22,196 nt of DNA. Origin: a virus (Duplodnaviria > Heunggongvirae > Uroviricota > Caudoviricetes). Under the pieces are notes generated by a model, which was not told the DNA's origin, made no database searches, and was given only the letters and a program-made list of their open reading frames with translations. A program made the position numbers and the translations under genes. The stretch lies in IMG/VR virus record IMGVR_UViG_2703718769_000014. The stretch is one strand, 5' to 3'. Position 1 is the first letter of the stretch; the number at the start of each line of letters is the position of its first letter. This document shows positions 1,419 to 21,423 of this stretch, in pieces.

Positions 1419-2489
1419 TTATTTGATTTCAATTTTGTCCCACTCCCTGCCTCTGTCATCACGATACTGTGATGCCATGGTGTCCGACTTATGCCCGAGA
1501 AGATGTTGAGCAAATTTATCGCTTATCTGCTTCTCATAGAGTCTTGCAGACAAACTGCGCAACTCGTGAAAGGTTGGCGGATCCCCTTCGAAGGAGAGAC
1601 CTGATGCTTTTCGTGCGCGCATAAAATACCTTGATACTGTGCCGGATGAAAGCGGTTCACGACGAGTAGATGCAATTATGGTTTCTCCGCCAAGAATCTT
1701 TTTGCATTTATCAAGTGTTTCCTTCATTGATATCCCGAGAGCATCAACATGCAATGTTGTTGGGATGGCAATTTTTACGCCTGTTTTGCTTTGCTCGACA
1801 TAAAGATATCCATCTACGATATCAGACCACTTCATTTCGCATAAATCACCAACTCGCTGCCCGGTAACAACAGCCAGTTCCATTGCAAGTCTAAGCCAAC
1901 ATGGTGATGATTCTGCTGCTTGATAAATTTTCAGGTATTCGTCAGCCGTAAGTCTTGATCTCCTTACCTCTGATTTTGCAGCGCGAGTGGCTGCGACCGG
2001 GTTTGTTGTTATATGGCCTTCAGCCATAGCCTCTCGGAATGCATCGCTCAGTGTTGATCTGATTAACTTGGCTGATGCCGCCTTTCCCTCGTCTATGTAT
2101 CCATTGAGCATTGCCGCAATTTCTTTTGTGGTGATGTCTTCAAGTGGAGCATCAGGCAGACCCCTCCTTATTGCTTTAATTTTGCTCATGTAATTTATGA
2201 GTGTCTTCTGCTTGATTCCTCTGCTGGCCAGGATTTTTTCGTAGCGATCAAGCCATGAATGTAACGTAACGGAATTATCACTGTTGATTCTCGCTGTCAG
2301 AGGCTTGTGTTTGTGTCCTGAAAATAACTCAATGTTGGCCTGTATAGCTTCAGTGATTGCGATTCGCCTGTCTCGGCCTAATCCAAACTCTTTACCCGTC
2401 CTTGGGTCCCTGTAGCAGTAATATCCATTGTTTCTTATATAAAGGTTAGGGGGTAAATCCCGGCGCTCATGACTTCGCCTTCTTCCCAT
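1419..2489 (-). CDS. int: Lambda-type tyrosine integrase Int
   Basis: 356-aa ORF essentially matching recalled lambda Int (MGRRRSHERRDLPPNLYIRNNGYYCYRDPRTGKEF... ending ...DDRGREWDKIEIK); placed immediately inside attL, 3' end overlapping xis. Confidence 0.97.
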   Translation of the reverse strand: MGRRRSHERRDLPPNLYIRNNGYYCYRDPRTGKEFGLGRDRRIAITEAIQANIELFSGHKHKPLTARINSDNSVTLHSWLDRYEKILASRGIKQKTLINYMSKIKAIRRGLPDAPLEDITTKEIAAMLNGYIDEGKAASAKLIRSTLSDAFREAMAEGHITTNPVAATRAAKSEVRRSRLTADEYLKIYQAAESSPCWLRLAMELAVVTGQRVGDLCEMKWSDIVDGYLYVEQSKTGVKIAIPTTLHVDALGISMKETLDKCKKILGGETIIASTRREPLSSGTVSRYFMRARKASGLSFEGDPPTFHELRSLSARLYEKQISDKFAQHLLGHKSDTMASQYRDDRGREWDKIEIK

Positions 2490-2685
2490 TTCTGATCCTC
2501 TTCAAAAGGCTACCTGTTACTGGTCGATTTAAGTCAACCTTTACCGCTGATTCGTGGAACAGATATTCTCTTCCATCCTTAACCGGAGGAGGGAATATCC
2601 TGCATTCGCGCACCCATCGACGAACTGTTTCAAGGCTTCTTGGGCGTCGCTGGCGAGCGTTCCACTCCTGAAGTGTCAAGTACAT
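2467..2685 (-). CDS. xis: Lambda-type excisionase Xis
   Basis: 72-aa ORF (MYLTLQEWNARQRRPRSLETVRRWVRECRIFPPPVKDGREYLFHESAVKVDLNRP...) matching lambda Xis; overlaps the int start as in lambda. Confidence 0.95.
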   Translation of the reverse strand: MYLTLQEWNARQRRPRSLETVRRWVRECRIFPPPVKDGREYLFHESAVKVDLNRPVTGSLLKRIRNGKKAKS

Positions 2686-6028: not shown

Positions 6029-6183
6029 ACAGCCCCTCGTTTATTATTTATCTCCTCAGCCAGCCGCTGTGCTTTCAGTGGATTTCGGATAACAGAAAGG
6101 CCGGGAAATACCCAGCCTCGCTTTGTAACGGAGTAGACGAAAGTGATTGCGCCTACCCGGATATTATCGTGAGGATGCGTCAT
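6001..6183 (-). CDS. Exo-xis region small protein, 60 aa (orf60a-like by size and position)
   Basis: ATG at 6183 gives a 60-aa product whose start overlaps the exo stop by 4 nt (ATGA); the ORF track lists the same frame from an upstream ATG (6189). Confidence 0.5.
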
Positions 6184-6821
6184 CGCCATTGCTCCCCAAA
6201 TACAAAACCAATTTCAGCCAGTGCCTCGTCCATTTTTTCGATGAACACCGGCACCATCTCGTCAAAACTCGCCATGTACTTTTCATCCCGCTCAACCACG
6301 ACATAATGCAGTCCTTCACGCTTCATACGCGGGTCATAGTTGGCAAAGTACCAGGCATCTTTTCGTGTCACCCACATGCTGTACTGCACCTGGGCCATGT
6401 AAGCCGACTTTATGGCCTCGAAACCACCGAGCCGGAACTTCATGAAATCCCGGGAGGTAAACGGGCATTTCAGCTCAAGGCCATTGCCGTCACTGCATAA
6501 ACCATCGGGAGAGCAGGCGGTGCGCATACTTTCGTCGCGATAGATGATCGGGGATTCAGTAACATTCACGCCGGAAGTGAATTCAAACAGGGTTCTGGCG
6601 TCGTTCTCGTACTGTTTTCCCCATGCCAGCGCCTTAGCATTAACTTCCGGAGCCACACCGGTGCAAACCTCAGCCAGCAGGGTGTGGAAGTAGGACATTT
6701 TCATGTCAGGCCACTTCTTTCCTGAGCGGGGCTTGGCTATCACGTTGTGAACTTCTGAAGCGGTGATGACGCCGAGCCGTAATTTGTGCCATGCATCATC
6801 CCCCTGTTCGACAGCTCTCAC
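6180..6821 (-). pseudogene. exo: Lambda exonuclease (Exo/RedX) lacking about 13 N-terminal codons; 5' end is a deletion junction
   Basis: Translation matches lambda Exo from [27 protein letters not shown] to the C-terminus GFVFGEQWR. There is no ATG; the frame opens at a GTG and an upstream stop. bet is absent and a ren fragment follows. Confidence 0.85.
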
Positions 6822-6841
6822 GTCGATCCCGGTAACGCAGA

Positions 6842-6973
6842 TCGGATGATTACCGGTTCGCTACCAGGGAAGAACGGGAAGGAAAGGTGAGCACGAATCT
6901 GATTTTCAAGGAGTGTCGCCAGAGTGCCGCGATGAAGCGGATGTTGGCATTTTATCGCGGCAATTTTCAATAG
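6842..6973 (+). pseudogene. ren: ren 3' fragment (C-terminal about 43 codons)
   Basis: Plus-strand frame reads ...[41 protein letters not shown], matching the recalled lambda Ren C-terminus ([30 protein letters not shown]...); no start codon or N-terminal part. Confidence 0.75.
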
Positions 6974-7010
6974 ACTATGTACATAAAAATATCATTTTTT
7001 TAATACATGT

Positions 7011-7217
7011 CTAATTATTGGACGAAATTGGTTTTTGCTTTGGTTTAGTTAGCCTAGCAATCAAGCCAGAGGCAATAATGATGATCCAAGCAATTTGATG
7101 CAATGCTACTCCAATATAAGAACCTTTATAGATAATAAAGGCATAGATCGCTAGAAACGAAATAAATATCCATAACGAAAGTTGATAAATTTTGGCGCGC
7201 ATATTTAATCCAATCAA
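7011..7217 (-). CDS. Small integral membrane protein (two predicted transmembrane helices), 62-68 aa
   Basis: Two hydrophobic helices (LSLWIFISFLAIYAFIIY and IAWIIIIASGLIA) and a basic C-terminal tail; AT-rich; divergent from the lipoprotein operon. Confidence 0.4.
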   Translation of the reverse strand: MIGLNMRAKIYQLSLWIFISFLAIYAFIIYKGSYIGVALHQIAWIIIIASGLIARLTKPKQKPISSNN

Positions 7218-7458
7218 TCAGAAAGACGAGTAATCATAGAGGTACTATCACCCGGGTAACTATTGCTATTATGAACGGATAGGATAGAGGCTTCAATAAC
7301 ATATGCATCAAGTATGATGGAATATGTAGGTGAAAATGACTTGTGTCAAATTTGTGGAAATGAGTACCATGTTTCTCTGAAATTGATGTCGTTAATGGCT
7401 AGTGATAGTGAACTTTTTTACTTTATAATTCCTTTGGTTATAACAATAAGGTAAATTT

Positions 7459-8019
7459 ATGAAGAAGATAATATTATTAGCCATGATTATTGGTTCTTTA
7501 ACAGGTTGCGCTAGTGTGCCACCATTGAATTTTTCAACACCTAACGTGGGAGTTAGCCAGAAAAAAATAGATGCTGAAATTAAGTCATTAACGGTATCAC
7601 TTGCTCGTCCAGATGAGCAGAAAGGGGATATCACTGCTGGTATGGAGGCTATAACTCCAATTTGGCGTGAATCTTTGCAGGAAGCACTCGACCGAATGAC
7701 TATTTTTCGTGATAGTTCACCAAATACGGTTAGCTTAAATGTTAAAGTGTTGGCTCTTGACGTTCCTGCTTTTGGTGTTTCAATGACAACTAAAGCAATT
7801 GCAAGGTATGAAATAATCAACCGTGCGAATGGTGATATTATATATACGCAGGATATTGAGTCTACCGGTACTGTTCCAGCCAGTTACGCATTCTACGGTA
7901 TTGTTCGAGCACGCGAATCTGTTAATCGCGCGGTGCAAAACAACATAACGCAGTTCTTGCAAGCATTAGAAAGTGTTGATCTTTCTCGTCCAATGTTTCC
8001 TGTTAGGGTAGCTAAATGA
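7459..8019 (+). CDS. Outer-membrane lipoprotein, 186 aa, unknown function
   Basis: Signal peptide with lipobox LTGC (Cys17, +2 residue Ala); Shine-Dalgarno-like AAGG upstream; stop overlaps the start of the next gene (ATGA at 8016-8019). Confidence 0.75.
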   Translation: MKKIILLAMIIGSLTGCASVPPLNFSTPNVGVSQKKIDAEIKSLTVSLARPDEQKGDITAGMEAITPIWRESLQEALDRMTIFRDSSPNTVSLNVKVLALDVPAFGVSMTTKAIARYEIINRANGDIIYTQDIESTGTVPASYAFYGIVRARESVNRAVQNNITQFLQALESVDLSRPMFPVRVAK

Positions 8020-8468
8020 AGCGATTATTCGTAATTGCTCCACTCTTAGTGTTGGTTGGATGCGCACAAAATATATCGCCAAATAGTTATTCTGTTGGCT
8101 CTGTGGGCATGGTTAATCGAACTATCGCTGGTACAGTTATTAGTGCTAGGGGGGTTGATATCAGTGGGACTTCCGCGTTAGGCGGGACTGCTGGGGCTGC
8201 CGTGGGGGCAACCGCTGGTTCTGCGCTTGGTGGGGGAGTTCGTTCTAATATCGTTGGTGCCGTTGGTGGTGCAGTCATTGGTGGTATTGCCGGGGCAGCA
8301 ATCGAATCTTCAGCAACAAAACAAACAGGCATGGAATATGTTGTCGAAACTGAGAATGGGAATTTAATGACCATTGTTCAAGGCAAAGATCCGTTATTTA
8401 CTCAAGGAAGTAAGGTCCTTGTTTTATACGGAAACCCTTCTCGCATAATAACAGACCCGCGTCACTAA
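8016..8468 (+). CDS. SlyB-like glycine-zipper outer-membrane lipoprotein, 150 aa
   Basis: Lipobox LVGC; long GxxxG zipper (GGTAGAAVGATAGSALGGG...GAVGGAVIGGIAGAAIE); C-terminal segment MEYVVETENGNLMTIVQGKD...VLVLYGNPSRI resembles the recalled SlyB C-terminus (ELEIRKDDGNTIMVVQKQG...VVLASNGSQV). Confidence 0.75.
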   Translation: MKRLFVIAPLLVLVGCAQNISPNSYSVGSVGMVNRTIAGTVISARGVDISGTSALGGTAGAAVGATAGSALGGGVRSNIVGAVGGAVIGGIAGAAIESSATKQTGMEYVVETENGNLMTIVQGKDPLFTQGSKVLVLYGNPSRIITDPRH

Positions 8469-8560
8469 CATACCTTTTGATTTTGTAAAATCAATTCGTA
8501 ATAATAAAGTCATCGGAGCTTGAACAACTCCGGTGACTTCTGCGCTAAACGGGGACGTTT

Positions 8561-8662
8561 ATGCGCACATACAATCCAAACTCTCTTCTCCCTTCACAGA
8601 TGCAGAAATGCACCTGCGATTTTTTGCATCCAGCGTCTGACCTCTGCGGAGGTGAAGCGTGA
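8561..8662 (+). CDS. Small ORF, 33 aa, ylcH-like by position and size
   Basis: ATG at 8561; stop overlaps the GTG start of the ybcN-like gene (GTGA); translation [33 protein letters not shown]. Confidence 0.4.
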
Positions 8663-9114
8663 ACCTACCACAAGATGGCATCAAACTGCATCGCGGTAAC
8701 TTCACCGCTATCGGCCAGCAGATCCAGCCTTATCTGGAGGACGGAAAATGCTTTCGCATGGTGCTTAAACCGTGGCGTGAGAAACGCAGTCTTTCCCAGA
8801 ATGCACTCAGCCACATGTGGTACAGCGAAATCAGTGAATACCTCATCAGCAGGGGGAAATCGTTCGCTACCGCAGCATGGGTAAAAGATGCTCTCAAACA
8901 CACATACCTCGGTTATGAAACCAAGGACCTGGTTGATGTCGTAACCGGCGAAATCACTACTATCCAGTCGTTACGCCATACCTCCGATCTTGATACCGGA
9001 GAGATGTATATCTTCCTGTGTAAGGTTGAAGCCTGGGCGGTGAATATTGGCTGCCACCTGACTATTCCGCAGAGCTGCGAGTTCCAGCAGCTCCGCGACA
9101 AACAGGAGGCGTAA
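8659..9114 (+). CDS. ybcN: NinB/YbcN-family protein, 151 aa
   Basis: GTG-start ORF of 151 aa; [19 protein letters not shown] motif resembles the NinB family; same position upstream of ninE/ybcO/rusA as ybcN in K-12 DLP12. Confidence 0.8.
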
Positions 9115-9284
9115 TGGCTACACCGCTTATTCGTGTCATGAACGGACACATCTACAGAGTACCAAATCGTCGTAAGCGTAAACCGGAGCTGAAGCCTTCC
9201 GAAATACCAACACTGCTCGGATATACCGCCAGCCTGGTTGATAAAAAATGGTTGCGACTGGCAGCAAGGAGGAGTCATGGCTGA
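9114..9284 (+). CDS. ninE: NinE-family small protein, 56 aa (below the ORF-track cutoff)
   Basis: ATG overlaps the ybcN stop (TAATG); translation [56 protein letters not shown]; stop overlaps the ybcO start. Confidence 0.7.
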   Translation: MATPLIRVMNGHIYRVPNRRKRKPELKPSEIPTLLGYTASLVDKKWLRLAARRSHG

Positions 9285-9567
9285 TTTGAGAAAAGCAGCG
9301 CGTGGTCGGGAATGCCAGGTAAGAATCCCTGGCGTATGTAATGGCAACCCTGAAACGTCTGTACTGGCACATATCCGGCTGACTGGATTGTGCGGCACCG
9401 GTACGAAACCGCCAGACCTGATTGCCACCATTGCATGTTCTGCCTGCCACGACGAAATCGACCGCCGCACACATTTTGTCGATGCTGCATATGCAAAAGA
9501 ATGCGCGCTGGAAGGTATGGCGAGAACACAGGTTATCTGGCTGAAAGAGGGGGTTATTAAGGCGTGA
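9277..9567 (+). CDS. ybcO: YbcO-family (DUF1364) Cys-rich putative nuclease, 96 aa
   Basis: Start [23 protein letters not shown]... at 9277 (the ORF track extends it upstream); Cys/His-rich; coupled to rusA. Confidence 0.82.
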
Positions 9568-9926
9568 ATACCTACAGCATCACATTACCCTGGCCTCCGA
9601 GCAATAATCGCTATTACCGCCATAATCGCGGGCGCACACACATCAGCGCAGAAGGGCAGGCATACCGCGATAACGTCACCCGAATCATTAAAAACGCAAT
9701 GCTGGATATCGGCCTGGCTATGCCAGTGAAAATCCGTATTGAGTGCCACATGCCGGATCGCCGTCGCCGTGACCTGGATAATCTGCAAAAAGCCGCTTTT
9801 GACGCACTCACCAAAGCAGGTTTCTGGCTGGATGATGCTCAGGTCGTTGATTACCGCGTTGTGAAGATGCCTGTTACCAAAGGTGGGAGGCTGGAACTGA
9901 CCATCACCGAAATGGGGAATGAATGA
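9564..9926 (+). CDS. rusA: RusA Holliday-junction resolvase
   Basis: 120-aa [29 protein letters not shown]...[31 protein letters not shown] matching recalled DLP12 RusA. Confidence 0.93.
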
Positions 9927-10063
9927 TGTTTGAGTTTAATATGGCAGAACTTCTTCGCCACCGCTGGATGCGCCTGCGCTTATATCGTTTCCCCAGTTCT
10001 GTTTTGACCGATTACCGAATACTGAGGAATTACGCCAAAACCCTGACAGGAGCAGGAGTATGA
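9923..10063 (+). CDS. ylcG: Small ORF, 46 aa, ylcG-like
   Basis: ATG overlapping the rusA stop (ATGA); translation [46 protein letters not shown]. Confidence 0.55.
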
Positions 10064-10148
10064 AGTCAGAGATAACAATCAACTAATACTGTTTTATTGA
10101 TTTTTGCTTGTAATTGGCGTTCTGGTCTGATTTTTGTGGAGTAAGTTG

Positions 10149-10532
10149 ATGCGTGATATTCAGATGGTTCTTGAGCGTTGGGGAGCGTGGGCGGCTAATA
10201 ATCATGAAGATGTGACCTGGTCGTCCATTGCCGCCGGTTTTAAGGGATTAATTACTTCAAAAGTAAAATCTCGCCCGCAATGTTGTGACGATGACGCGAT
10301 GATCATTTGCGGGTGCATGGCCCGTCTGAAAAAGAACAACAGCGATTTGCACGATTTATTAGTAGATTATTATGTAGTCGGTATGACATTCATGTCACTG
10401 GCAGGTAAGCATTGCTGCTCTGATGGTTATATCGGGAAAAGGTTACAGAAGGCTGAGGGTATAATTGAAGGGATGTTAATGGCATTAGATATCCGGTTAG
10501 AGATGGATATCGTTGTTAATAACTCTAATTAA
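10149..10532 (+). CDS. quuD: Late-gene antiterminator Q (QuuD-type)
   Basis: 127-aa product from the ATG at 10149 (the track starts at an upstream TTG); Cys-rich zinc-finger region [16 protein letters not shown]; sits at the end of the nin block. Confidence 0.85.
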
Positions 10533-10565
10533 TATGCCAATTGTTTACTAAAAATTATTAAAAAT

Positions 10566-10583
10566 GGGGCGTTGAGACGCCCC
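10566..10583 (-). terminator. Hairpin GGGGCG-TTGAGA-CGCCCC with a T-run on the minus strand; likely terminator for the convergent porin transcript
   Basis: Inverted repeat seen directly; on the minus strand it is followed by ATTTTTAATAATTTTT. Confidence 0.5.
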
Positions 10584-10671
10584 CAAAAATAAAGGGTAAT
10601 ATATAACAGAAGGTTTATATAGTTAGAAGCAAGGTTGTGCTCCTAAAGGAAGTGGCTTGAGGGAGCCACTT

Positions 10672-10710
10672 ATATGTTGGGGAGGCAAAGCCTCCCGCAA
10701 CATATCTTTT
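10672..10710 (+). terminator. Long stem-loop (about 15-bp stem, AAA loop) followed by CTTTT, between the convergent Q and porin genes
   Basis: ATATGTTGGGGAGGC-AAA-GCCTCCCGCAACATAT then CTTTT; a second hairpin AGTGGCT-TGAGGG-AGCCACT lies just upstream (10651-10670). Confidence 0.5.
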
Positions 10711-10720
10711 AGTAATCAAA

Positions 10721-11803
10721 TTAGAACTGGTAAACCATACCTACAGCAACGATATCATCGGTAGCAACGCCAGATGCTTTCGTGAAATCGCTCTTATCAA
10801 TCAGGTTGATTTTGTAATCAACAAAAGTGGACATATTTTTGTTGAAGTAATAGGTTGCACCTACATCAATATATTCAACCAGGTCCTGATCACCCCACGC
10901 ACCCAAGTCTTTTCCTTTAGATTGCAGGTAAGCAACGGACGGACGCAGACCGAAGTCGAACTGATATTGTGCAACTACTTCGAAGTTTTGTGCTTTGTTG
11001 GCAATATGGTTATTACCAAAAACAGTCATGTTCTGGGTTTCAGAATAGGTGGTAGCCAGATAGATGTTGTTCGCATCATATTTCAGACCAGCTGCCCATA
11101 CTTCAGCATTTTGACCAGATGCATTCAGGCTGTTGTTACCGTAGATAACCTGATTATTAGTGCGGTCAGATTTAGCATAGGTTGCACCTACACCGAATCC
11201 TTCATACTCATAAGTAGTGGAGAAACCGAAACCATCACCATTAGCTTCAGTTACGTCAGTGCGGTCATTTTTACCCTGATACTGAGCAGCAAAGTTCAGA
11301 CCATCAACCAGACCAAAGAAGTCATTGTTACGATAAGTTGCAACACCTGTGGTGCGACCAGTCATGAATACATCTGTTTGGGTCCAGGTATCGCCACCGA
11401 ATTCTGGCAGAACGTCGGTCCATGCACCAATATCGTATGCTACACCGTAGTTACGGCCATAATCGATGGAGCCGTAGTCACCGAATTTCAGGCCAGCGAA
11501 GGCAAGACGGGTTTTATCTTTGGAGGAACCTTGAGATTCAGCGCGGTTGCCTTTGAATTCATATTCCCACTGACCGAAACCAGTCAGTTGATCGTTGATT
11601 TGGGTTTCACCTTTGAAGCCAAGACGGGCATAAGTAGTATCACCATCATCTGCATCATTAGAGGAGAAGTAGTGCTTAGCATTAACTTTCCCGTACAGAT
11701 CCAGCTTGTTACTGTCTTTATTATAAATTTCAGCTGCCTGAGCAGACATCGCCATCAGTACTGATGCAGCTACAGCAGAAATTGCCACTGTTAATTTTTT
11801 CAT
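10721..11803 (-). CDS. nmpC: NmpC/OmpD-type general porin (OmpC/OmpF superfamily), prophage-encoded
   Basis: Signal peptide [40 protein letters not shown]-terminus, PEFGGD loop motif, C-terminal VGMVYQF beta-signal. The track ORF begins 20 codons upstream of the true start. Confidence 0.9.
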
Positions 11804-12228
11804 CGTGAGCCCTTTTTTTGAACTATTATTAAAAAATGATGTCACTGCGCGATAAATATTCATCTAATCAATGTGATTATTTCAAGATGTAAGTTTTGGT
11901 TTCTCATTTGATTTGTGAAGTAGATCTCTATTTTTATCTGAACTTTTTCTATCGAATCCTATTCATGGCTCTTGGCTGAATAAAAATAAATCTATTAGCC
12001 AATTTATATTAATGGCTGTTATTTATAAGCGCTCTATAATTTGAAGATTCAATTTAAACCAGCTAAAAATAACGCTGGAAATTATTTGTTGGTTATTTGT
12101 TGAGATTTGCTTATGTATTTGTAGTGGTGTTTTCAATACTCGGTAGCATTCTCGCAAATATCATTTAGTGGTTTACGTACGTAAAAAATTGGTTATGCTG
12201 TTAAGAGTGGTTACTTCGTCACACAGCT

Positions 12229-12262
12229 TAAACCCGCCGTCGAGCGGGTTTTTCCATTTTTT
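12229..12262 (+). terminator. Rho-independent terminator (tR'-like) upstream of the lysis cassette
   Basis: AACCCGC-CGTCGA-GCGGGTT followed by TTTTCCATTTTTT, about 130 nt upstream of the holin start. Confidence 0.7.
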
Positions 12263-12390
12263 GAGTCTCGATATTAGCTGATAACCCAATACCTGAGTTA
12301 TTCACTGACTCCGAGTCTGTTACGTTTCTGCTTTTTTGCGATACGTTGTATTCCCTCAATTTACACCCGCTTTGTCTGCGAGGTGGGGTT

Positions 12391-12606
12391 ATGAAATCCA
12401 TGGATAAGTTAACAACGGGTGTCGCCTATGGCACCTCAGCAGGTAGTGCCGGTTACTGGTTTTTACAGCTGCTCGATAAAGTCACGCCCTCACAGTGGGC
12501 AGCAATAGGTGTGCTGGGTAGCCTGGTATTTGGCCTGCTGACGTACCTGACAAACCTTTATTTCAAGATTAAAGAAGATAAGCGCAAGGCTGCGAGAGGT
12601 GAATAA
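12391..12606 (+). CDS. essD: Phage-21-type class II holin (pinholin S21), dual-start motif MKSM
   Basis: 71-aa product [26 protein letters not shown]... with two transmembrane segments and a charged C-terminus; the track ORF is extended upstream. Confidence 0.9.
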
Positions 12607-13103
12607 TGCCTCCATCATTACGAAAAGCCGTTGCTGCTGCTATTGGTGGCGGAGCAATTGCTATAGCATCAGTGTTAATTACTGGCCCAAGTGGTAACGA
12701 TGGTCTGGAAGGTGTCAGCTACGTACCATACAAAGATATCGTTGGCGTATGGACTGTATGTCACGGACACACCGGAAAAGACATCATGCTCGGTAAAACG
12801 TATACCAAAGCAGAATGCAAAGCACTCTTGAATAAAGACCTTGCCACTGTCGCCAGACAAATTAACCCGTACATCAAAGTCGATATACCGGAAACAACGC
12901 GCGGCGCTCTTTACTCATTCGTTTACAACGTGGGTGCTGGCAATTTCAGAACATCGACGCTTCTTCGCAAAATAAACCAGGGCGATATCAAAGGCGCATG
13001 TGATCAGCTACGTCGCTGGACATATGCTGGCGGTAAGCAATGGAAAGGTCTCATGACTCGTCGTGAGATTGAGCGTGAAATCTGTTTGTGGGGTCAGCAA
13101 TGA
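12606..13103 (+). CDS. rrrD: SAR endolysin (signal-anchor-release lysozyme, R21 type)
   Basis: 165-aa ORF with N-terminal SAR domain [27 protein letters not shown] followed by a lysozyme-like domain; start overlaps the holin stop (TAATG). Confidence 0.92.
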
Positions 13104-13561
13104 ACAGAGTAACCGCGATTATCTCCGCTCTGGTTATCTGCATCATCGTCTACCTGTCATGGGCTGTTAATCATTACCGTGATAACGCCATTACCTACAA
13201 AGCCCAGCGCGACAAAAATGCCAGAGAACTGAAGCTGGCGAACGCGGCAATTACTGACATGCAGATGCGTCAGCGTGATGTTGCTGCGCTCGATGCAAAA
13301 TACACGAAGGAGTTAGCTGATGCGAAAGCTGAAAATGATGCTCTGCGTGATGATGTTGCCGCTGGTCGTCGTCGGTTGCACATCAAAGCAGTCTGTCAGT
13401 CAGTGCGTGAAGCCACCACCGCCTCCGGCGTGGATAATGCAGCCTCCCCCCGACTGGCAGACACCGCTGAACGGGATTATTTCACCCTCAGAGAGAGGCT
13501 GATCACTATGCAAAAACAACTGGAAGGAACCCAGAAGTATATTAATGAGCAGTGCAGATAG
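13100..13561 (+). CDS. Rz: Rz inner-membrane spanin
   Basis: Start [29 protein letters not shown] overlapping the endolysin stop; N-terminal transmembrane segment and coiled-coil periplasmic domain; matches recalled lambda Rz. Confidence 0.88.
13320..13502 (+). CDS. Rz1: Rz1 outer-membrane lipoprotein spanin, embedded in the +1 frame of Rz
   Basis: Lipobox VVVGC and proline-rich mature part ([21 protein letters not shown]) entirely inside Rz. Confidence 0.8.
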
Positions 13562-13592
13562 AGTTGCCCATATCGATGGGCAACTCATGCAA

Positions 13593-13886
13593 TTATTGTG
13601 AGCAATACACACGCGCTTCCAGCGGAGTATAAATGCCTAAAGTAATAAAACCGAGCAATCCATTTACGAATGTTTGCTGGGTTTCTGTTTTAACAACATT
13701 TTCTGCGCCGCCACAAATTTTGGCTGCATCGACAGTTTTCTTCTGCCCAATTCCAGAAACGAAGAAATGATGGGTGATGGTTTCCTTTGGTGCTACTGCT
13801 GCCGGTTTGTTTTGAACAGTAAACGTCTGTTGAGCACATCCTGTAATAAGCAGGGCCAGCGCAGTAGCGAGTAGCATTTTTTTCAT
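13593..13886 (-). CDS. bor: Bor lipoprotein (serum-resistance lipoprotein of lambda)
   Basis: 97-aa ORF MKKMLLATALALLITGCAQQTFTVQNKPAAVAPKETITHHFFVSGIGQKKTVD... matching recalled lambda Bor; lipobox ITGC. Confidence 0.92.
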   Translation of the reverse strand: MKKMLLATALALLITGCAQQTFTVQNKPAAVAPKETITHHFFVSGIGQKKTVDAAKICGGAENVVKTETQQTFVNGLLGFITLGIYTPLEARVYCSQ

Positions 13887-14176
13887 GGTGTTATTCCCGA
13901 TGCTTTTTGAAGTTCGCAGAATCGTATGTGTAGAAAATTAAACAAACCCTAAACAATGAGTTGAAATTTCATATTGTTAATATTTATTAATGTATGTCAG
14001 GTGCGATGAATCGTCATTGTATTCCCGGATTAACTATGTCCACAGCCCTGACGGGGAACTTCTCTGCGGGAGTGTCCGGGAATAATTAAAAACGATGCAC
14101 ACAGGGTTTAGCGCGTACACGTATTGCATTATGCCAACGCCCCGGTGCTGACACGGAAGAAACCGGACGTTATGAT

Positions 14177-14710
14177 TTAGCGTGGAAAGATTTGTGTAGT
14201 GTTCTGAATGCTCTCAGTAAATAGTAATGAATTATCAAAGGTATAGTAATATCTTTTATGTTCATGGATATTTGTAACCCATCGGAAAACTCCTGCTTTA
14301 GCAAGATTTTCCCTGTATTGCTGAAATGTGATTTCTCTTGATTTCAACCTATCATAGGACGTTTCTATAAGATGCGTGTTTCTTGAGAATTTAACATTTA
14401 CAACCTTTTTAAGTCCTTTTATTAACACGGTGTTATCGTTTTCTAACACGATGTGAATATTATCTGTGGCTAGATAGTAAATATAATGTGAGACGTTGTG
14501 ACGTTTTAGTTCAGAATAAAACAATTCACAGTTTAAATCTTTTCGCACTTGATCGAATATTTCTTTAAAAATGGCAACCTGAGCCATTGGTAAAACCTTC
14601 CATGTGATACGAGGGCGCGTAGTTTGCATTATCGTTTTTATCGTTTCAATCTGGTCTGACCTCTTTGTGTTTTGTTGATGATTTATGTCAAATATTAGGA
14701 ATGTTTTCAC
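14177..14710 (-). CDS. Hypothetical protein of the lambda right arm downstream of bor, 177 aa
   Basis: ORF present at the corresponding position of the lambda right arm as I recall it; AT-rich; no family recognised. Confidence 0.55.
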
Positions 14711-14872
14711 TTAATAGTATTGGTTGCGTAACAAAGTGCGGTCCTGCTGGCATTCTGGAGGGAAATACAACCGACAGATGTATGTAAGGCCAACGTGCTC
14801 AAATCTTCATACAGAAAGATTTGAAGTAATATTTTAACCGCTAGATGAAGAGCAAGCGCATGGAGCGACAAA

Positions 14873-15079
14873 ATGAATAAAGAACAATCTGCTGATGATC
14901 CCTCCGTGGATCTGATTCGTGTAAAAAATATGCTTAATAGCACCATTTCTATGAGTTACCCTGATGTTGTAATTGCATGTATAGAACATAAGGTGTCTCT
15001 GGAAGCATTCAGAGCAATTGAGGCAGCGTTGGTGAAGCACGATAATAATATGAAGGATTATTCCCTGGTGGTTGACTGA
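14873..15079 (+). CDS. Small hypothetical protein, 68 aa (YbcW-like by size and position)
   Basis: 68-aa ORF with Shine-Dalgarno GGAG upstream; present at the same place in the lambda right arm and DLP12. Confidence 0.5.
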
Positions 15080-15243
15080 TCACCATAACTGCTAATCATT
15101 CAAACTATTTAGCCTGTGACAGAGCCAACACGCAGTCTGTCACTGTCAGGAAAGTGGTAAAACTGCAACTCAATTACTGCAATGCCCTCGTAATTAAGTG
15201 AATTTACAATATCGTCCTGTTCGGAGGGAAGAACGCGGGATGT

Positions 15244-15438
15244 TCATTCTTCATCACTTTTAATTGATGTATATGCTCTCTTTTCTGACGTTAGTCTCCG
15301 ACGGCAGGCTTCAATGACCCAGGCTGAGAAATTCCCGGACCCTTTTTGCTCAAGAGCGATGTTAATTTGTTCAATCATTTGGTTAGGAAAGCGGATGTTG
15401 CGGGTTGTTGTTCTGCGGGTTCTGTTCTTCGTTGACAT
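15244..15438 (-). CDS. Small basic DNA-binding-like protein, 64 aa (YlcI-like)
   Basis: N-terminal Arg/Thr-rich segment MSTKNRTRRTTTRNIRFPNQMIEQINIAL suggests a ribbon-helix-helix fold; size matches the DLP12 small ORF upstream of cos. Confidence 0.55.
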   Translation of the reverse strand: MSTKNRTRRTTTRNIRFPNQMIEQINIALEQKGSGNFSAWVIEACRRRLTSEKRAYTSIKSDEE

Positions 15439-15599
15439 GAGGTTGCCCCGTATTCAGTGTCGCTGATTTGTATTGTCTGAAGTTGTTTTTACGTTAAGTT
15501 GATGCAGATCAATTAATACGATACCTGCGTCATAATTGATTATTTGACGTGGTTTGATGGCGTAGATGCACGTTGTGACATGTAGATGATAATTATTAT

Positions 15600-15830
15600 C
15601 ATTTTGCGGGTCCTTTCCGGCGATCCGACAGGTTACGGGGCGGCGACCTCGCGGGTTTTCGCTATTTATGAAAATTTTCCGGTTTAAGGCGTTTCCGTTC
15701 TTCTTCGTCATAACTTAATGTTTTTATTTAAAATACCCTCTGAAAAGAAAGGAAGCGACAGGTGCTGAAAGCGAGCTTTTTGGCCTCTGTCGTTTCCTTT
15801 CTCTGTTTTTGTCCGTGGAATGAACAATGG
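15600..15830. other. cos site: cosQ, cosN (12-nt cohesive end GGGCGGCGACCT at 15638-15649), cosB
   Basis: Sequence ...CGGGTCCTTTCCGGCGATCCGACAGGTTACGGGGCGGCGACCTCGCGGGTTTTCGCTATTTATGAAAATTTTCCGG... matches the recalled lambda genome ends and runs directly into nu1. Confidence 0.9.
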
Positions 15831-16372
15831 AAGTCAACAAAAAGCAGCTGGCTGACATTTTCGGTGCGAGTATCCGTACCATTCAGAACTGGCAGGAACA
15901 GGGAATGCCCGTTCTGCGAGGCGGTGGCAAGGGTAATGAGGTGCTTTATGACTCTGCCGCCGTCATAAAATGGTATGCCGAAAGGGATGCTGAAATTGAG
16001 AACGAAAAGCTGCGCCGGGAGGTTGAAGAACTGCGGCAGGCCAGCGAGGCAGATCTCCAGCCAGGGACTATTGAGTACGAACGCCATCGACTTACGCGTG
16101 CGCAGGCCGACGCACAGGAACTGAAGAATGCCAGAGACTCCGCTGAAGTGGTGGAAACCGCATTCTGTACTTTCGTGTTGTCGCGGATCGCAGGTGAAAT
16201 TGCCAGTATTCTCGACGGGATCCCCCTGTCGGTGCAGCGGCGTTTTCCGGAACTGGAAAACCGACATGTTGATTTCCTGAAACGGGATATCATCAAAGCC
16301 ATGAACAAAGCAGCCGCGCTGGATGAACTGATACCGGGGTTGCTGAGTGAATATATCGAACAGTCAGGTTAA
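15827..16372 (+). CDS. nu1: Terminase small subunit Nu1
   Basis: 181-aa ORF MEVNKKQLADIFGASIRTIQNWQEQGMPVLRGGGKGNEVLYDSAAVIKWYAERD... matching recalled lambda Nu1. Confidence 0.95.
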   Translation: MEVNKKQLADIFGASIRTIQNWQEQGMPVLRGGGKGNEVLYDSAAVIKWYAERDAEIENEKLRREVEELRQASEADLQPGTIEYERHRLTRAQADAQELKNARDSAEVVETAFCTFVLSRIAGEIASILDGIPLSVQRRFPELENRHVDFLKRDIIKAMNKAAALDELIPGLLSEYIEQSG

Positions 16373-17408
16373 CAGGCTGCGGCATTTTGTCCGCGCCGGG
16401 CTTCGCTCACTGTTCAGGCCGGAGCCACAGACCGCCGTTGAATGGGCGGATGCTAATTACTATCTCCCGAAAGAATCCGCATACCAGGAAGGGCGCTGGG
16501 AAACACTGCCCTTTCAGCGGGCCATCATGAATGCGATGGGCAGCGACTACATCCGCGAGGTGAATGTGGTGAAGTCTGCCCGTGTTGGTTATTCCAAAAT
16601 GCTGTTGGGTGTTTATGCCTACTTCATAGAGCATAAGCAGCGCAACACACTTATCTGGTTGCCGACGGATGGTGATGCCGAGAACTTTATGAAAACCCAC
16701 GTTGAGCCGACCATCCGCGATATTCCGTTGCTGCTGGCGCTGGCTCCGTGGTATGGCAAAAAGCACCGGGATAACACGCTCACCATGAAGCGTTTTTCCA
16801 ATGGTCGTGGCTTCTGGTGCCTGGGCGGTAAAGCGGCAAAAAACTACCGTGAAAAGTCGGTGGATGTGGCGGGTTATGATGAACTTGCTGCCTTTGATGA
16901 GGATATTGAACAGGAAGGCTCTCCGACGTTCCTTGGCGACAAACGTATTGAAGGCTCGGTCTGGCCAAAGTCCATCCGTGGCTCCACCCCCAAAGTGAGA
17001 GGCACCTGCCAGATTGAGCGTGCAGCCAGTGAATCCCCGCATTTTATGCGTTTTCATGTTGCCTGTCCGCACTGCGGGGAGGAGCAGTACCTTAAATTTG
17101 GCGATAAAGAGACGTCGTTTGGCCTCAAATGGACGCCGGATGATCCCTCCAGCGTGTTTTATCTCTGCGAACATAATGCCTGCGTCATCCGCCAGCAGGA
17201 ACTGGACTTCACTGATGCCCGTTATATCTGCGAAAAGACCGGGATCTGGACCCGTGATGGCATTCTCTGGTTTTCGTCATCCGGTGAAGAGATTGAGCCG
17301 CCGGACAGCGTGACCTTTCACATCTGGACGGCGTACAGCCCGTTCACCACCTGGGTGCAGATTGTCAAAGACTGGATGAAAACGAAAGGGGATACCTTCT
17401 GCCCGTAA
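16347..17408 (+). pseudogene. A: Terminase large subunit A, truncated after about 350 of 641 codons
   Basis: Translation follows recalled lambda gpA from MNISNSQVNRLRHFVRAGLRSLFRPEPQTAVEWADANYYLPKESAY to ...[11 protein letters not shown], then diverges (FCP*) at the junction with the tail-fibre fragment. Confidence 0.9.
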
Positions 17409-17409
17409 G

Positions 17410-18594
17410 GTGAATGGTAAGGCGCTTTCAGCGGATATAACACTGACGCCGAAAGATATTGGTACGCTTAACTCAACAACAATGTCATTCAGCGGTGGTG
17501 CTGGTTGGTTCAAATTAGCAACGGTAACCATGCCACAGGCGAGTTCTGTTGTTTCAATTACGTTGATTGGTGGCGCGGGATTTAACGTGGGGTCACCTCA
17601 ACAGGCAGGTATATCTGAACTTGTTTTGCGTGCAGGTAATGGTAATCCGAAGGGGATTACTGGTGCTTTATGGCAGCGCACATCGACAGGGTTTACAAAT
17701 TTTGCCTGGGTCAATACATCTGGTGATACTTACGATATTTACGTTGCAATCGGAAATTATGCGACTGGTGTAAATATTCAATGGGATTATACCAGTAATG
17801 CCAGCGTGACGATTCATACGTCACCAGCATATTCTGCTAATAAGCCGGAAGGGTTAACGGACGGTACAGTTTATTCACTCTATACGCCATCAGAGCAGTT
17901 TTATCCGCCTGGCGCACCAATCCCGTGGCCATCAGATACCGTTCCGTCTGGCTATGCCCTGATGCAGGGGCAGACTTTTGACAAATCTGCATACCCGAAA
18001 CTTGCAGCCGCTTATCCGTCAGCCGTGATCCCTGATATGCGTGGCTGGACGATTAAGGGCAAACCCGCCAGTGGTCGTGCCGTATTGTCTCAGGAACAGG
18101 ACGGCATTAAATCGCACACCCACAGCGCCAGCGCATCCAGTACGGATTTGGGGACGAAAAACACATCGTCGTTTGATTACGGAACCAAATCCACGAATAA
18201 CACCGGGGCGCATACCCATAGTATTAGCGGGACTGCAAATAGTGCCGGTGCGCACCAACACAAGAGTTCCGGTGCATTTGGTGGCACGAACACGAGCATT
18301 TTCCCTAATGGTTATACCGCGATTTCAAATCTAAGCGCGGGGATTATGAGCACAACAAGCGGTAGTGGCCAGACTCGTAATGCAGGGAAGACATCATCAG
18401 ATGGTGCTCATACCCACTCGCTGTCCGGCACTGCTGCAAGCGCAGGCGCACATGCACATACTGTCGGTATTGGTGCTCATACGCACTCCGTTGCGATTGG
18501 CTCACACGGACACACCATCACCGTTAACGCTGCTGGTAACGCGGAAAACACCGTCAAAAACATCGCATTTAACTATATTGTGAGGCTTGCATAA
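17410..18594 (+). pseudogene. stf: Side tail fibre (Stf) C-terminal fragment with His-x-His repeat region; no proper start
   Basis: Frame opens right after the truncated A gene; contains repeated GAHTHS / GAHAHT / GSHGHT motifs typical of the distal part of lambda/T4-type long tail fibres; followed by tfa with an ATAATG overlap. Confidence 0.8.
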
Positions 18595-19175
18595 TGGCAT
18601 TCAGAATGAGTGAACAACCACGGACCATAAAAATTTATAATCTGCTGGCCGGAACTAATGAATTTATTGGTGAAGGTGATGCATATATTCCGCCTCATAC
18701 AGGTCTGCCAGCAAACAGTACCGATATTGCACCGCCAGATATTCCGGCTGGCTTCGTGGCTGTTTTCAACAGTGATGAGTCATCGTGGCATCTTGTTGAA
18801 GACCATCGGGGTAAAACAGTTTATGACGTGGCATCAGGGGACGCGTTATTTATTTCTGAACTCGGCTCATTACCGGAAAATGTTACCTGGTTATCCCCGG
18901 AAGGGGAGTTTCAGAAGTGGAACGGCACAGCCTGGGTGAAGGATACGGAAGCAGAAAAACTGTTCCGGATCCGGGAGGTGGAAGAAACAAAAAACAGCCT
19001 GATGCAGGTAGCCAGTGAGCATATAGCGCCGCTTCAGGATGCTGTGGATCTGGAAATCGCAACGGAGGAAGAAACCTTGTTGCTGGAAGCCTGGAAAAAG
19101 TATCGGGTATTGCTGAACCGTGTTGATACGTCAACTGCACAGGATATTGAATGGCCAGTAGCACCTATAGGGTAA
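18594..19175 (+). CDS. tfa: Tail fibre assembly protein Tfa
   Basis: 193-aa [65 protein letters not shown]... matching recalled lambda Tfa. Confidence 0.9.
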
Positions 19176-20095: not shown

Positions 20096-20679
20096 CTTTA
20101 TCAATGACTTATCTCCCGACTTCCCGCCTTGCTTTTCCTAAACAGAACAATCGTAGAATATTCTTGAAGGGTTAGATCGTCACTGTTTTCTGTTCGATAC
20201 TGTGACATTCAGCACTTGATTCGCTATGGATCTGACAGGAAGGTTTTGAGCGAAAATTTGCAGTTATTCAGTCGTTTTCTTATCGGTCACCATTATTCTT
20301 TTAGACATTGATCCTACAAAGCTGCCGCAAAGTTGGTGGTGGGAACTGAAGTTGCGTAGAGAAGGGGTCAATACCCGGAGGCAAACATGGGCTGGCAAAA
20401 GTGTAGCGGTATTAGGCGCAGCTATTTAGCCTAGTTATGTTTTATGAAAACTTGATATCATATAAGTGTCTTACTTATTGGCTGTAAATAAGTTTTTCCT
20501 AAGGAATTGTTTCTTGAGTATCATTTGTAACTGTAACGGAATTTATAATCCTTTGCTTTATTGTTACGGTATTTTTTATCACACCCTATTTTTTATGTGG
20601 TTTTTTATACTGAAGTTTGGCAAAGTGAACTTTATATGCATATACTTCATCCTGGTTTCAGTTAAGTTGGGTGGATGAT

Positions 20680-21423
20680 ATGGCAACTACATGTTCAGTT
20701 ATATTGATTTTGGAGTCCTTTGATGTTTATTTCGGAAAAGAGAGTGTGTTTCTGGAGAGAGGTTCATCTGTACTTGTCGACTCTAGCTCTAGAGATTTTT
20801 TCCTGACATATCCTGAAAGAGTGATAGTGGCGGATTTTGGCGCTGAGTTTATTAGTCGCTATTTGAAAGCTAATAACTTAAGGGATATTTCTGATTGTAG
20901 GGAATATCCATCTTATTTAAAAATAAACTTTGCTGACTTCAGTTTAATTAAAGGATTAATTAGTTGGGCTAATCACTGTGCTGAATACATAGAAATTTTT
21001 GATGAGTCTATTGCTTTTACATGTCTCTCTGCATTTTCTTCTGAAAAACAATTTGGAGTATTTCTGTTTGAATGTTTGAAAAGCACAGGGGCTAAAGTTA
21101 AAACGATTATTCATACGGATTTATCTGCACCATGGCGTCTTAAGGATATATCATCAAGATTATATCTCAGCGAAAGTTTACTAAAGAGGAAATTGAAAGA
21201 AGAGGGGGTATCATTCAGTAAGATCATACTTGATGAGAGGATGCAAATGGCTGAATATTTACTCAGCACTCGTTGTTATCCTATTAGTAAAGTAGCTAAG
21301 GTCTGTGGTTATGCCAGTGTCTCATACTTTACTTATGTATTTAGACGTTATTTTGGTGTTTCTCCAAGTCAATACTCTCAGAGCAGTTCAGAAAGTAAAA
21401 TTCTTACTCACCAGGGAATCTGA
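20680..21423 (+). CDS. AraC/XylS-family transcriptional regulator (AppY/Rns-like), AT-rich
   Basis: C-terminal dual helix-turn-helix signature (WRLKDISSRLYLSESLLKRKLKEEGVSFSKIILDERMQMA...VAKVCGYASVSYFTYVFRRYFGVSPSQY); ATG at 20680 preferred over the GTG at 20671; low GC. Confidence 0.85.
   Translation: MATTCSVILILESFDVYFGKESVFLERGSSVLVDSSSRDFFLTYPERVIVADFGAEFISRYLKANNLRDISDCREYPSYLKINFADFSLIKGLISWANHCAEYIEIFDESIAFTCLSAFSSEKQFGVFLFECLKSTGAKVKTIIHTDLSAPWRLKDISSRLYLSESLLKRKLKEEGVSFSKIILDERMQMAEYLLSTRCYPISKVAKVCGYASVSYFTYVFRRYFGVSPSQYSQSSSESKILTHQGI

Follow-up and report, generated by a model that had tools for sequence, protein, structure and literature searches.

The window, by which we mean the whole stretch of 22,196 nucleotides that was analysed, matches the chromosome of E. 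coli FDAARGOS_1248 (NZ_CP069542.1) with 100% identity and 0 mismatches. In the RefSeq annotation ybhC is followed by the gene for a lambda-type integrase of 356 amino acids, xis, a number of early-left ORFs and exo; to the right of exo there are a ren pseudogene, a pair of hypothetical ORFs, the series ybcN-ninE-ybcO-rusA-ylcG-quuD and a porin gene, followed by essD-rrrD-rzpD, bor, ybcV, ybcW, ylcI and nohD. At the right end the terminase gene is truncated and runs into a tail-fibre fragment, after which come tfa, a gene of the AraC family and IS remnants, with ybhB/bioA beyond. The attL core of att-lambda, an exact match to GCTTTTTTATACTAA on the plus strand (1331-1345), lies between ybhC and int, i.e. 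a phage attachment site adjoins an integrase gene as in an integrated prophage. The genes int (356 aa) and xis (72 aa) are intact according to PGAP (1419-2685, minus strand; 97.9% identity to lambda 27724-29333). The sequence identifies the element as a cryptic lambdoid prophage inserted at att-lambda, and the original prediction, which had placed it there with a lambda-type int, agrees in this respect with the exact attL core and the 356-aa integrase.

The element follows the gene order of lambda, and its left arm from int to exo as well as its remnant of ren are 92-98% identical to lambda DNA, whereas its Q gene and late region are of the DLP12 type and not of the lambda type. Between 8475 and 16654 the window has the nin-Q-porin-lysis-bor-nohD right arm of DLP12 in the same order and with 96-97% DNA identity, a similarity that covers ybcN-ninE-ybcO-rusA-ylcG-quuD, the porin gene, essD-rrrD-rzpD, bor, ybcV, ybcW, ylcI and nohD; the EssD proteins of the two elements are identical, as are the QuuD proteins (same accessions). 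On the plus strand of this arm one finds the gene for the Q-type antiterminator, quuD (10149-10532; protein WP_001204791.1, as in K-12 DLP12), the lysis cassette essD-rrrD-rzpD (12391-13561; intact coding sequences by PGAP, 96% identity to DLP12), an exact match to the cosN 12-mer GGGCGGCGACCT (15638-15649) and nohD/nu1, annotated as intact (15827-16372). The porin gene itself (10721-11803, minus strand; annotated ompC) is also intact and sits between quuD and essD, at the position that nmpC takes in DLP12; in K-12 an IS5 adjoins the porin gene.

Further to the right the element is badly damaged. The terminase gene A is truncated and joined to a tail-fibre fragment, and PGAP annotates no head or tail genes. 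The join is a second, separate scar between a terminase remnant A' of about 350 codons and the C-terminal part of a tail-fibre gene (17389-17395; PGAP pseudogenes 16347-17396 and 17392-18594), at which the two BLAST half-matches overlap by 7 nt. The A'|tfa' deletion of K-12 covers the position of this scar (window-equivalent 16655-18739). A degenerate att-lambda core, GGTTTTTTATACTGA, with 2 mismatches and followed by P'-like bases, occurs at 20599-20613 and may be the remnant of a tandem or earlier att-lambda element; a true attR was not located within the window. Just downstream of this core lies the AraC-family gene (20671-21423), of which the 250-aa product is 29% identical to AppY, with IS fragments next to it.

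Between the two arms stand the remains of two genes that are both cut inside their reading frames and face each other. On the minus strand, exo' (6180-6834) encodes residues 10-226 of Exo plus the stop, and is devoid of the first nine codons, the start codon and the upstream signals. Its DNA homology to lambda (97% identity to 31096-32002) ends at window 6834, i.e. at lambda 32002, and in a tblastn comparison residues 10-226 of lambda Exo align to window 6833-6183 with 98% identity. The YqaJ domain is present (Pfam PF09588, E=4.8e-30, residues 18-161 of the 220-aa call). The native frame is lost, the first nine codons and the overlap between the bet stop and the exo start having been deleted; the first canonical in-frame start is the GTG at Val14, and PGAP begins its 220-aa coding sequence (6180-6842) at a non-canonical ATC. 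On the plus strand, ren' (6849-6973) comprises the last 40 codons of ren plus the stop, with no start codon or promoter. It is 99.3% identical to the intact ren of SCEC020001, a close intact relative, and 92% identical to lambda 40449-40548, with the homology beginning at window 6849; Ren residues 58-97 align to window 6851-6970 (tblastn) and PGAP lists a pseudogene at 6851-6973 ('protein ren, missing N-terminus'). A full-length ren of 96-97 codons downstream of P is not present, and P is gone.

The original prediction had recognized the truncated exo, the ren stub and the short gap between them, yet the figures need correction: nine Exo codons are missing and not 13, a count that had been taken from the first in-frame GTG at 6821; 40 codons of ren remain instead of about 43; and the gap amounts to 14 unique nucleotides (6835-6848) instead of about 20. 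These 14 nucleotides are the unique part of a 24-nt relic of the interior of bet (6830-6853, minus strand), which is identical to lambda bet 32450-32473 at 24 of 24 positions and within which the ATC start of the annotated exo lies. Because a piece of bet separates exo' from ren', the scar holds two junctions, and both its two-step nature and the bet relic had been overlooked before. The exo|bet junction has the microhomology CGGTA (6830-6834), as established by alignment with lambda and with an intermediate genome, MS 124-1, that is introduced below; the bet|ren junction has the microhomology ATTAC (6849-6853), as established by a three-way alignment of the window, lambda bet and the intact ren of SCEC020001.

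Directly after ren' follows an AT-rich moron (6974-8468). It encodes a 186-aa ORF (7459-8019) that has no Pfam match and for which one RefSeq genome gives the label YajG-family lipoprotein, and a 150-aa ORF (8016-8468) whose glycine-zipper matches are weak and do not reach the Pfam cut-off. A 68-aa ORF on the minus strand (7011-7217) is not annotated. In SCEC020001, where ren is intact, the same moron comes directly after it, and the moron was therefore not produced by the scar.

What is absent from the element is the complete central block, i.e. lambda 32003-32449 and 32474-40448. At a cutoff of E<=0.01, tblastn searches gave no match in the window for lambda Bet, Gam, Kil, CIII, Ea10, Ral, SieB and N, for lambda RexA/B, CI, Cro, CII, O and P, or for the S24 repressor, Cro, YdaT, O and P of SCEC020001, and a repressor gene is likewise missing from the PGAP annotation of the identical genome. 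The element is thus one without a repressor and without pL/pR that still has Q, a lysis cassette, cos and nu1. In its broad lines this is the picture that had been proposed from the sequence. A deletion junction was said to have removed the recombination, immunity and replication functions, and this fits with the truncations of exo and ren and with the empty searches; bet, gam, kil, cIII, N, rex, cI, cro, cII, O and P, which were said to be absent, were all without a tblastn match in the window; the lack of a repressor and of pL/pR is in line with both annotation and searches; and the predicted survival of Q, an intact lysis cassette, cos and nu1 corresponds to quuD, essD-rrrD-rzpD and nohD, annotated intact, and to the exact cos.

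The order in which the two junctions arose can be read from living relatives. A query across the junction was covered by only 13 of 5,426 complete E. coli genomes, six in one piece (the window type) and seven in two pieces over 753 bp. The latter seven (MS 124-1 and six others) carry only the first deletion, D1. In the case of MS 124-1 the same prophage, at att-lambda, has a full exo of 681 bp, a 447-bp fragment of bet with which the 24-nt relic is contiguous, and an identical ren stub of 123 bp. Its flanks are 99.97-99.99% identical to those of the window, and at the scar the sole difference is a clean gap of 452 bp that has CGGTA on both sides, so that one copy of the repeat is seen directly at each deleted end. 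More generally, the D1-only sisters (MS 124-1, NCTC9040, NCTC9104) have the same element, insertion site and bet|ren junction and are >99.97% identical to the window, and differ from it in that the start of exo is still there, together with 447 bp of bet, and that the 452-bp deletion D2 has not taken place. Given that these genomes combine a full exo with 447 bp of bet, D1 came first and D2 followed in the lineage of the window. The D1 junction was recovered as a single piece in 18 complete genomes and in truncated form in the six genomes of the window type.

We propose that two RecA-independent, microhomology-mediated (illegitimate) deletions in succession would have made the composite scar at 6830-6853 in a prophage at att-lambda. 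In D1 a point inside bet (lambda 32473) became linked to codon 57/58 of ren (lambda 40449) by way of the repeat ATTAC. Lost with it were the 5' portions of bet and ren and everything between them, namely gam, kil, cIII and N, the pL/immunity/pR region, cII, O together with ori, and P; its size, ~8 kb (7.98 kb), is expressed in lambda coordinates only and may have been different in the true progenitor. In D2 codon 9/10 of exo (lambda 32002) became linked to what was left of bet (lambda 32450) by way of the repeat CGGTA, with the loss of 452 bp, i.e. the exo start and all of the bet stub except for 24 nt. The two junctions, their order and the absence of the central genes are shown by the sequences themselves, and the way in which the ends were joined is inferred from them. 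For both deletions the short repeat is found once at the junction and at both parental ends. In a simple random-sequence model a microhomology of >=5 nt is expected at ~0.5% of random junctions, and both junctions have 5 nt. Such 5-nt microhomologies would be characteristic of illegitimate recombination that does not require RecA, whether through slippage or through a break followed by end-joining; replication slippage and break/end-joining leave sequences that look the same. Illegitimate recombination in E. coli has been described as resembling microhomology-mediated end joining (PMC11372144). Taken together, two successive microhomology deletions very probably explain the scar, and very probably left an element that cannot be induced and of which the scar is independent of that in K-12 DLP12.

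The same lineage has yielded other outcomes. D3 is found in four genomes (NCTC9041 and three others) and removed 1262 bp, including exo, from the other side of the site at which D2 ends; D4 is found in at least two genomes (JNQH497, 23CRST021) and removed ~1700 bp, likewise from the other side. Unlike the window, the D3 and D4 sisters have lost exo, which is consistent with exo being dispensable. A further prophage at att-lambda, that of strain 38, has lost the central block by a deletion from bet 32585 to P at about lambda 40054 with a 4-nt overlap (9172-9175 in the sequence of that locus). It keeps 561 bp of bet, 231 bp of P' and the whole of ren, and has a right arm of the SCEC020001 type and not of the DLP12 type; its deletion is an independent and unrelated loss of the central block.

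The exo breakpoint of D2 is not confined to the window. The sequence CCCGGTAC (lambda 31998-32003, window 6830-6834) ends at least six classes of junctions, from which deletions run to either side, and which are distributed over prophages at att-lambda, forms of DLP12 and a contig from IMG/VR. The classes are D2 itself (exo to bet 32450, microhomology CGGTA), D3 (microhomology TA), D4 (GGT), an older form of DLP12 (exo to O' at lambda 39350, TA), the DLP12 of the EC-07 type (exo to P' at lambda 39677, GGTAC) and the IMG/VR contig L013, in which exo is joined to what, by eye from the translation, is the C-terminus of a DNA methylase gene. In our locus numbering the breakpoint was located at L004 8131-8135, L007 8552-8553, L029 6590-6592 and L009 7232-7236, and in L011, L013, L014, L016, L017 and L022. 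The site was used by four of the seven deletions that were found without conditioning on it, and by all three secondary deletions of the att-lambda lineage (D2, D3 and D4), events being counted here without phylogenetic correction. An intact copy across the site is present in 3,215 genomes, as judged from a 600-nt BLAST query and the best place per genome only.

One might suppose that the exo breakpoint is a fragile site and not a random point of slippage, at which the sequence CCCGG-TAC would cause a specific break or stall time and again and so give rise to deletions, D2 being one of its products. The fact that the same 5-6 nt end six classes of junctions speaks for it, as does the use of the site by the unconditioned and the secondary deletions; moreover, two control 21-mers from elsewhere in exo gave no junction matches in IMG/VR. 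A third control 21-mer recovered 57 IMG/VR contigs, in 43 of which the site could be read, and it ran intact into bet in 43 out of 43, so that the site is not a mosaic boundary. Against this stand several observations. Single-strand folding of both strands, at the exo site as well as at the D1 junction, gave z-scores of -0.6 to +0.4, i.e. near 0, and a hairpin as the cause was therefore rejected. Beyond GGTA/TA the sharing of sequence between breakpoints is not significant: the candidate motif GGTANCGCAGATC, which occurs in bet and near the P partner, had 3 matches at <=2 mismatches where 1.14 were expected, and 22 of 200 shuffles did equally well. The tetranucleotide GTAC occurs also at the P partner and not at the other partners. 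A search by eye for restriction or type IIS sites around the breakpoint gave nothing convincing, and no known nuclease site was recognized. Furthermore, some of the classes may not be independent, as exo|P' may have been derived from exo|O' through a GGTA repeat, and both exo|O' and L013 came from a pattern search that was conditioned on the site. On balance we regard a sequence-specific break or stall as a serious possibility that has somewhat less than an even chance of being correct. The stronger form of the idea, in which the 5' end of exo is a genuine site-specific fragile point that seeds deletions in both directions and thereby drives a stepwise decay until the site itself is lost, can be put forward only tentatively.

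A related explanation, in which a resident DLP12 with an exo' that ends at GGTA would have templated the breaks as a boundary of homology, finds no support, as a second copy of exo is absent in the affected genomes: in the D1-only, D2, D3 and D4 genomes a single place matches the exo-5'/ren query (one place per record). A transient exo donor may have served as the template, and the D2 junction would match the exo|O' scar over the 8 nt CGGTAACG, which is suggestive only. Searches with the junction pattern yielded 0 matches in the genome contig collection and 11 in metagenome contigs, ten of which are unrelated sequences that share a 19-mer and one of which is an exo|O' junction; the patterns of the D3 and EC-07 types had 0 matches in IMG/VR. 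The exo 19-mer TCTCACRTCGATCCCGGTA also occurs exactly in a family of contigs from soil metagenomes (L018-L020, L023-L027), where it is flanked by sequence unlike exo (...tcactccaatctcac[a/g]tcgatcccggtaGTGGCTAAC...); probably the match is fortuitous or reflects a conserved element that has nothing to do with exo.

The close resemblance of the right arm to DLP12 brings us to the claim that the window has the same exo/ren scar as K-12 DLP12, by way of a shared ancestral deletion that would have been inherited before the move to att-lambda. The similarities are considerable. Like the window, DLP12 is a lambdoid prophage from which the whole block between exo and P/ren is gone and which has experienced nested deletions as well; the right arm at window 8475-16654 is shared; and the exo breakpoint coincides with that of the older DLP12 forms to the nucleotide. 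Nevertheless, when the region was aligned to lambda and to DLP12, the junction proved not to be identical to that of DLP12, which is the outcome that the original prediction itself had named as contradicting the claim. In K-12 the breakpoints are exo at lambda 31627 and P at lambda 39972, with a 2-nt overlap (2101-2102 in the sequence of the K-12 locus), against exo 32002, bet 32450-32473 and ren 40449 in the window. The K-12 scar thus consists of a 279-bp exo fragment that abuts a 312-bp P fragment, followed by a ren that is split by IS3 and then by emrE, and this exoD|peaD (exo|P') scar is not present in the window. DLP12 keeps P' and the whole of the IS3-split ren, whereas in the window exo is almost complete and ren is reduced to 40 codons. 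The exo segment 31628-32002 is found in the window and missing from K-12, the P/ren segment 39972-40448 is found in K-12 and missing from the window, and since each scar holds DNA that is missing from the other, neither can be derived from the other. The surroundings differ as well: after ren, DLP12 continues with emrE-ylcJ-ybcK-ybcL-ybcM and the window with the two small membrane/lipoprotein ORFs, and DLP12 is integrated at argU with intD (in both K-12 and EC-07 it adjoins tRNA-Arg, with intD), as opposed to att-lambda with a lambda-type int.

The older forms of DLP12 lead to the same conclusion. In EC-07 (7232-7236 of locus L009) exo runs to lambda 32003 and is joined to P 39677, with flanks that are 100% identical to K-12, and K-12 lacks a further 666 bp across this exo|P' junction. 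The exoD/peaD scar of K-12 is thus itself a late product of a nested series, i.e. exo|P' followed by the 666-bp deletion. In the exo|O' form exo 32002 is joined to O 39350, after which P and ren are present as a whole; it was found in contigs from IMG/VR and metagenomes (L011 and related ones) and, as two-piece matches, in ~23 complete genomes, and may be the first step of the DLP12 series. The complete genomes comprise 9 of the EC-07 type and 306 of the K-12 type. These older forms and the window have the same exo breakpoint nucleotides with different right-hand partners, namely the bet relic and ren codon 58 in the window versus O' (39350) or P' (39677) in these forms of DLP12 (and P' at 39972 in K-12), and therefore what they have in common is a breakpoint and not a deletion. 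In addition, the bet fragment of the window occurs in no form of DLP12, all of which hold P and 5' ren sequence that is missing here; the D1-only intermediate has an intact exo start, which implies that in this lineage the exo breakpoint is later than D1; and the A'/tail scar, which no more than 11 complete genomes share, a smaller number than that of the D1 carriers, is absent from DLP12. A common ancestral deletion is therefore contradicted at the level of the nucleotides and very improbable.

Equally hard to maintain is a single deletion from exo to ren, after which the 14-24 nt in between would be filler DNA, untemplated or templated, from end-joining. Short insertions at illegitimate junctions are generally known, and if one had nothing but the window to go by, the small size of the segment would permit such a reading. 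The segment, however, is identical to lambda bet at 24 out of 24 positions and has the orientation and position that are expected of a leftover, and seven genomes have the same bet|ren junction together with 447 bp of bet and a complete exo, which makes filler DNA most unlikely. That there was no deletion at all, the scar being either a natural boundary in a mosaic type of phage from which these genes had always been absent or an artefact of assembly, can practically be dismissed: lambdoid phages are indeed mosaic and lambda homology often ends abruptly (e.g. at lambda 33193 and 34055), but here the genes on both sides point towards each other and are cut off within the reading frame, intact phages run from exo into bet across the site, and the identical junction recurs in six independently assembled complete genomes and two IMG/VR contigs, which rules out an assembly artefact.

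The two successive deletions would have far-reaching consequences for the element. As cI, N, pL, pR, cII, O, P and ori are all gone, it would be non-inducible and non-replicating, and the gene content suggests that neither induction nor release of phage takes place. In lambda, Xis is expressed from pL and Int from the cII-dependent pI. Because pL, cII and N are absent, int and xis would be cut off from these signals and would lose their normal expression. The remnants exo' and ren' would be promoterless fragments, and the DLP12-like late region would survive as cargo under the control of the host; by analogy with lambda biology, these effects on expression appear plausible. A consensus scan detected promoter-like sites in the AT-rich region to the right of ren', and some transcription across the scar may occur from these predicted sites.

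Loss of the immunity and replication block is what one expects of cryptic lambdoid prophages, and in that sense the scar is the result of ordinary prophage decay, a new and well-resolved example of a well-known process, of which the recurrent exo breakpoint is the sole surprising part. The passages on decay in two earlier publications agree with this. DLP12 is described there as a prophage that has been stripped of the functions for lytic reactivation while keeping a transcribed lysis module (PMC7918800), and the 'grounding' or domestication of prophages is described as a process of deletion by which the functions for lytic reactivation are lost and selected modules are retained (PMC6379469, citing Bobay et al. 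2014). The window, with its reactivation functions gone and its lysis cassette kept, fits the model in these passages, which do not contain nucleotide-level scars, a nested series or a recurrent exo breakpoint (PMC6379469, PMC7918800).

What the present analysis adds is that the scar records the events in their order, D1 and then D2, with living intermediates and with D3 and D4 as sister outcomes, and that it provides nucleotide-level markers for the D1 prophage lineage, to which 24 of the 5,426 complete E. coli genomes belong. There have been at least three independent losses of the central block, one in the att-lambda lineage, one in DLP12 and one in strain 38. Exo/ren scars that look similar would naturally be taken for homologous, an assumption that these findings correct. 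If the 5' end of exo is indeed a fragile site, this would account for the fact that all three secondary deletions of the att-lambda lineage and the oldest scars of DLP12 end there, and for the fact that the K-12 type, in which the site has been lost, is the commonest form of DLP12 (306 genomes, versus 9 and ~23 for the EC-07 and exo|O' types). The decay of these prophages would then be partly channelled by sequence, and not random.
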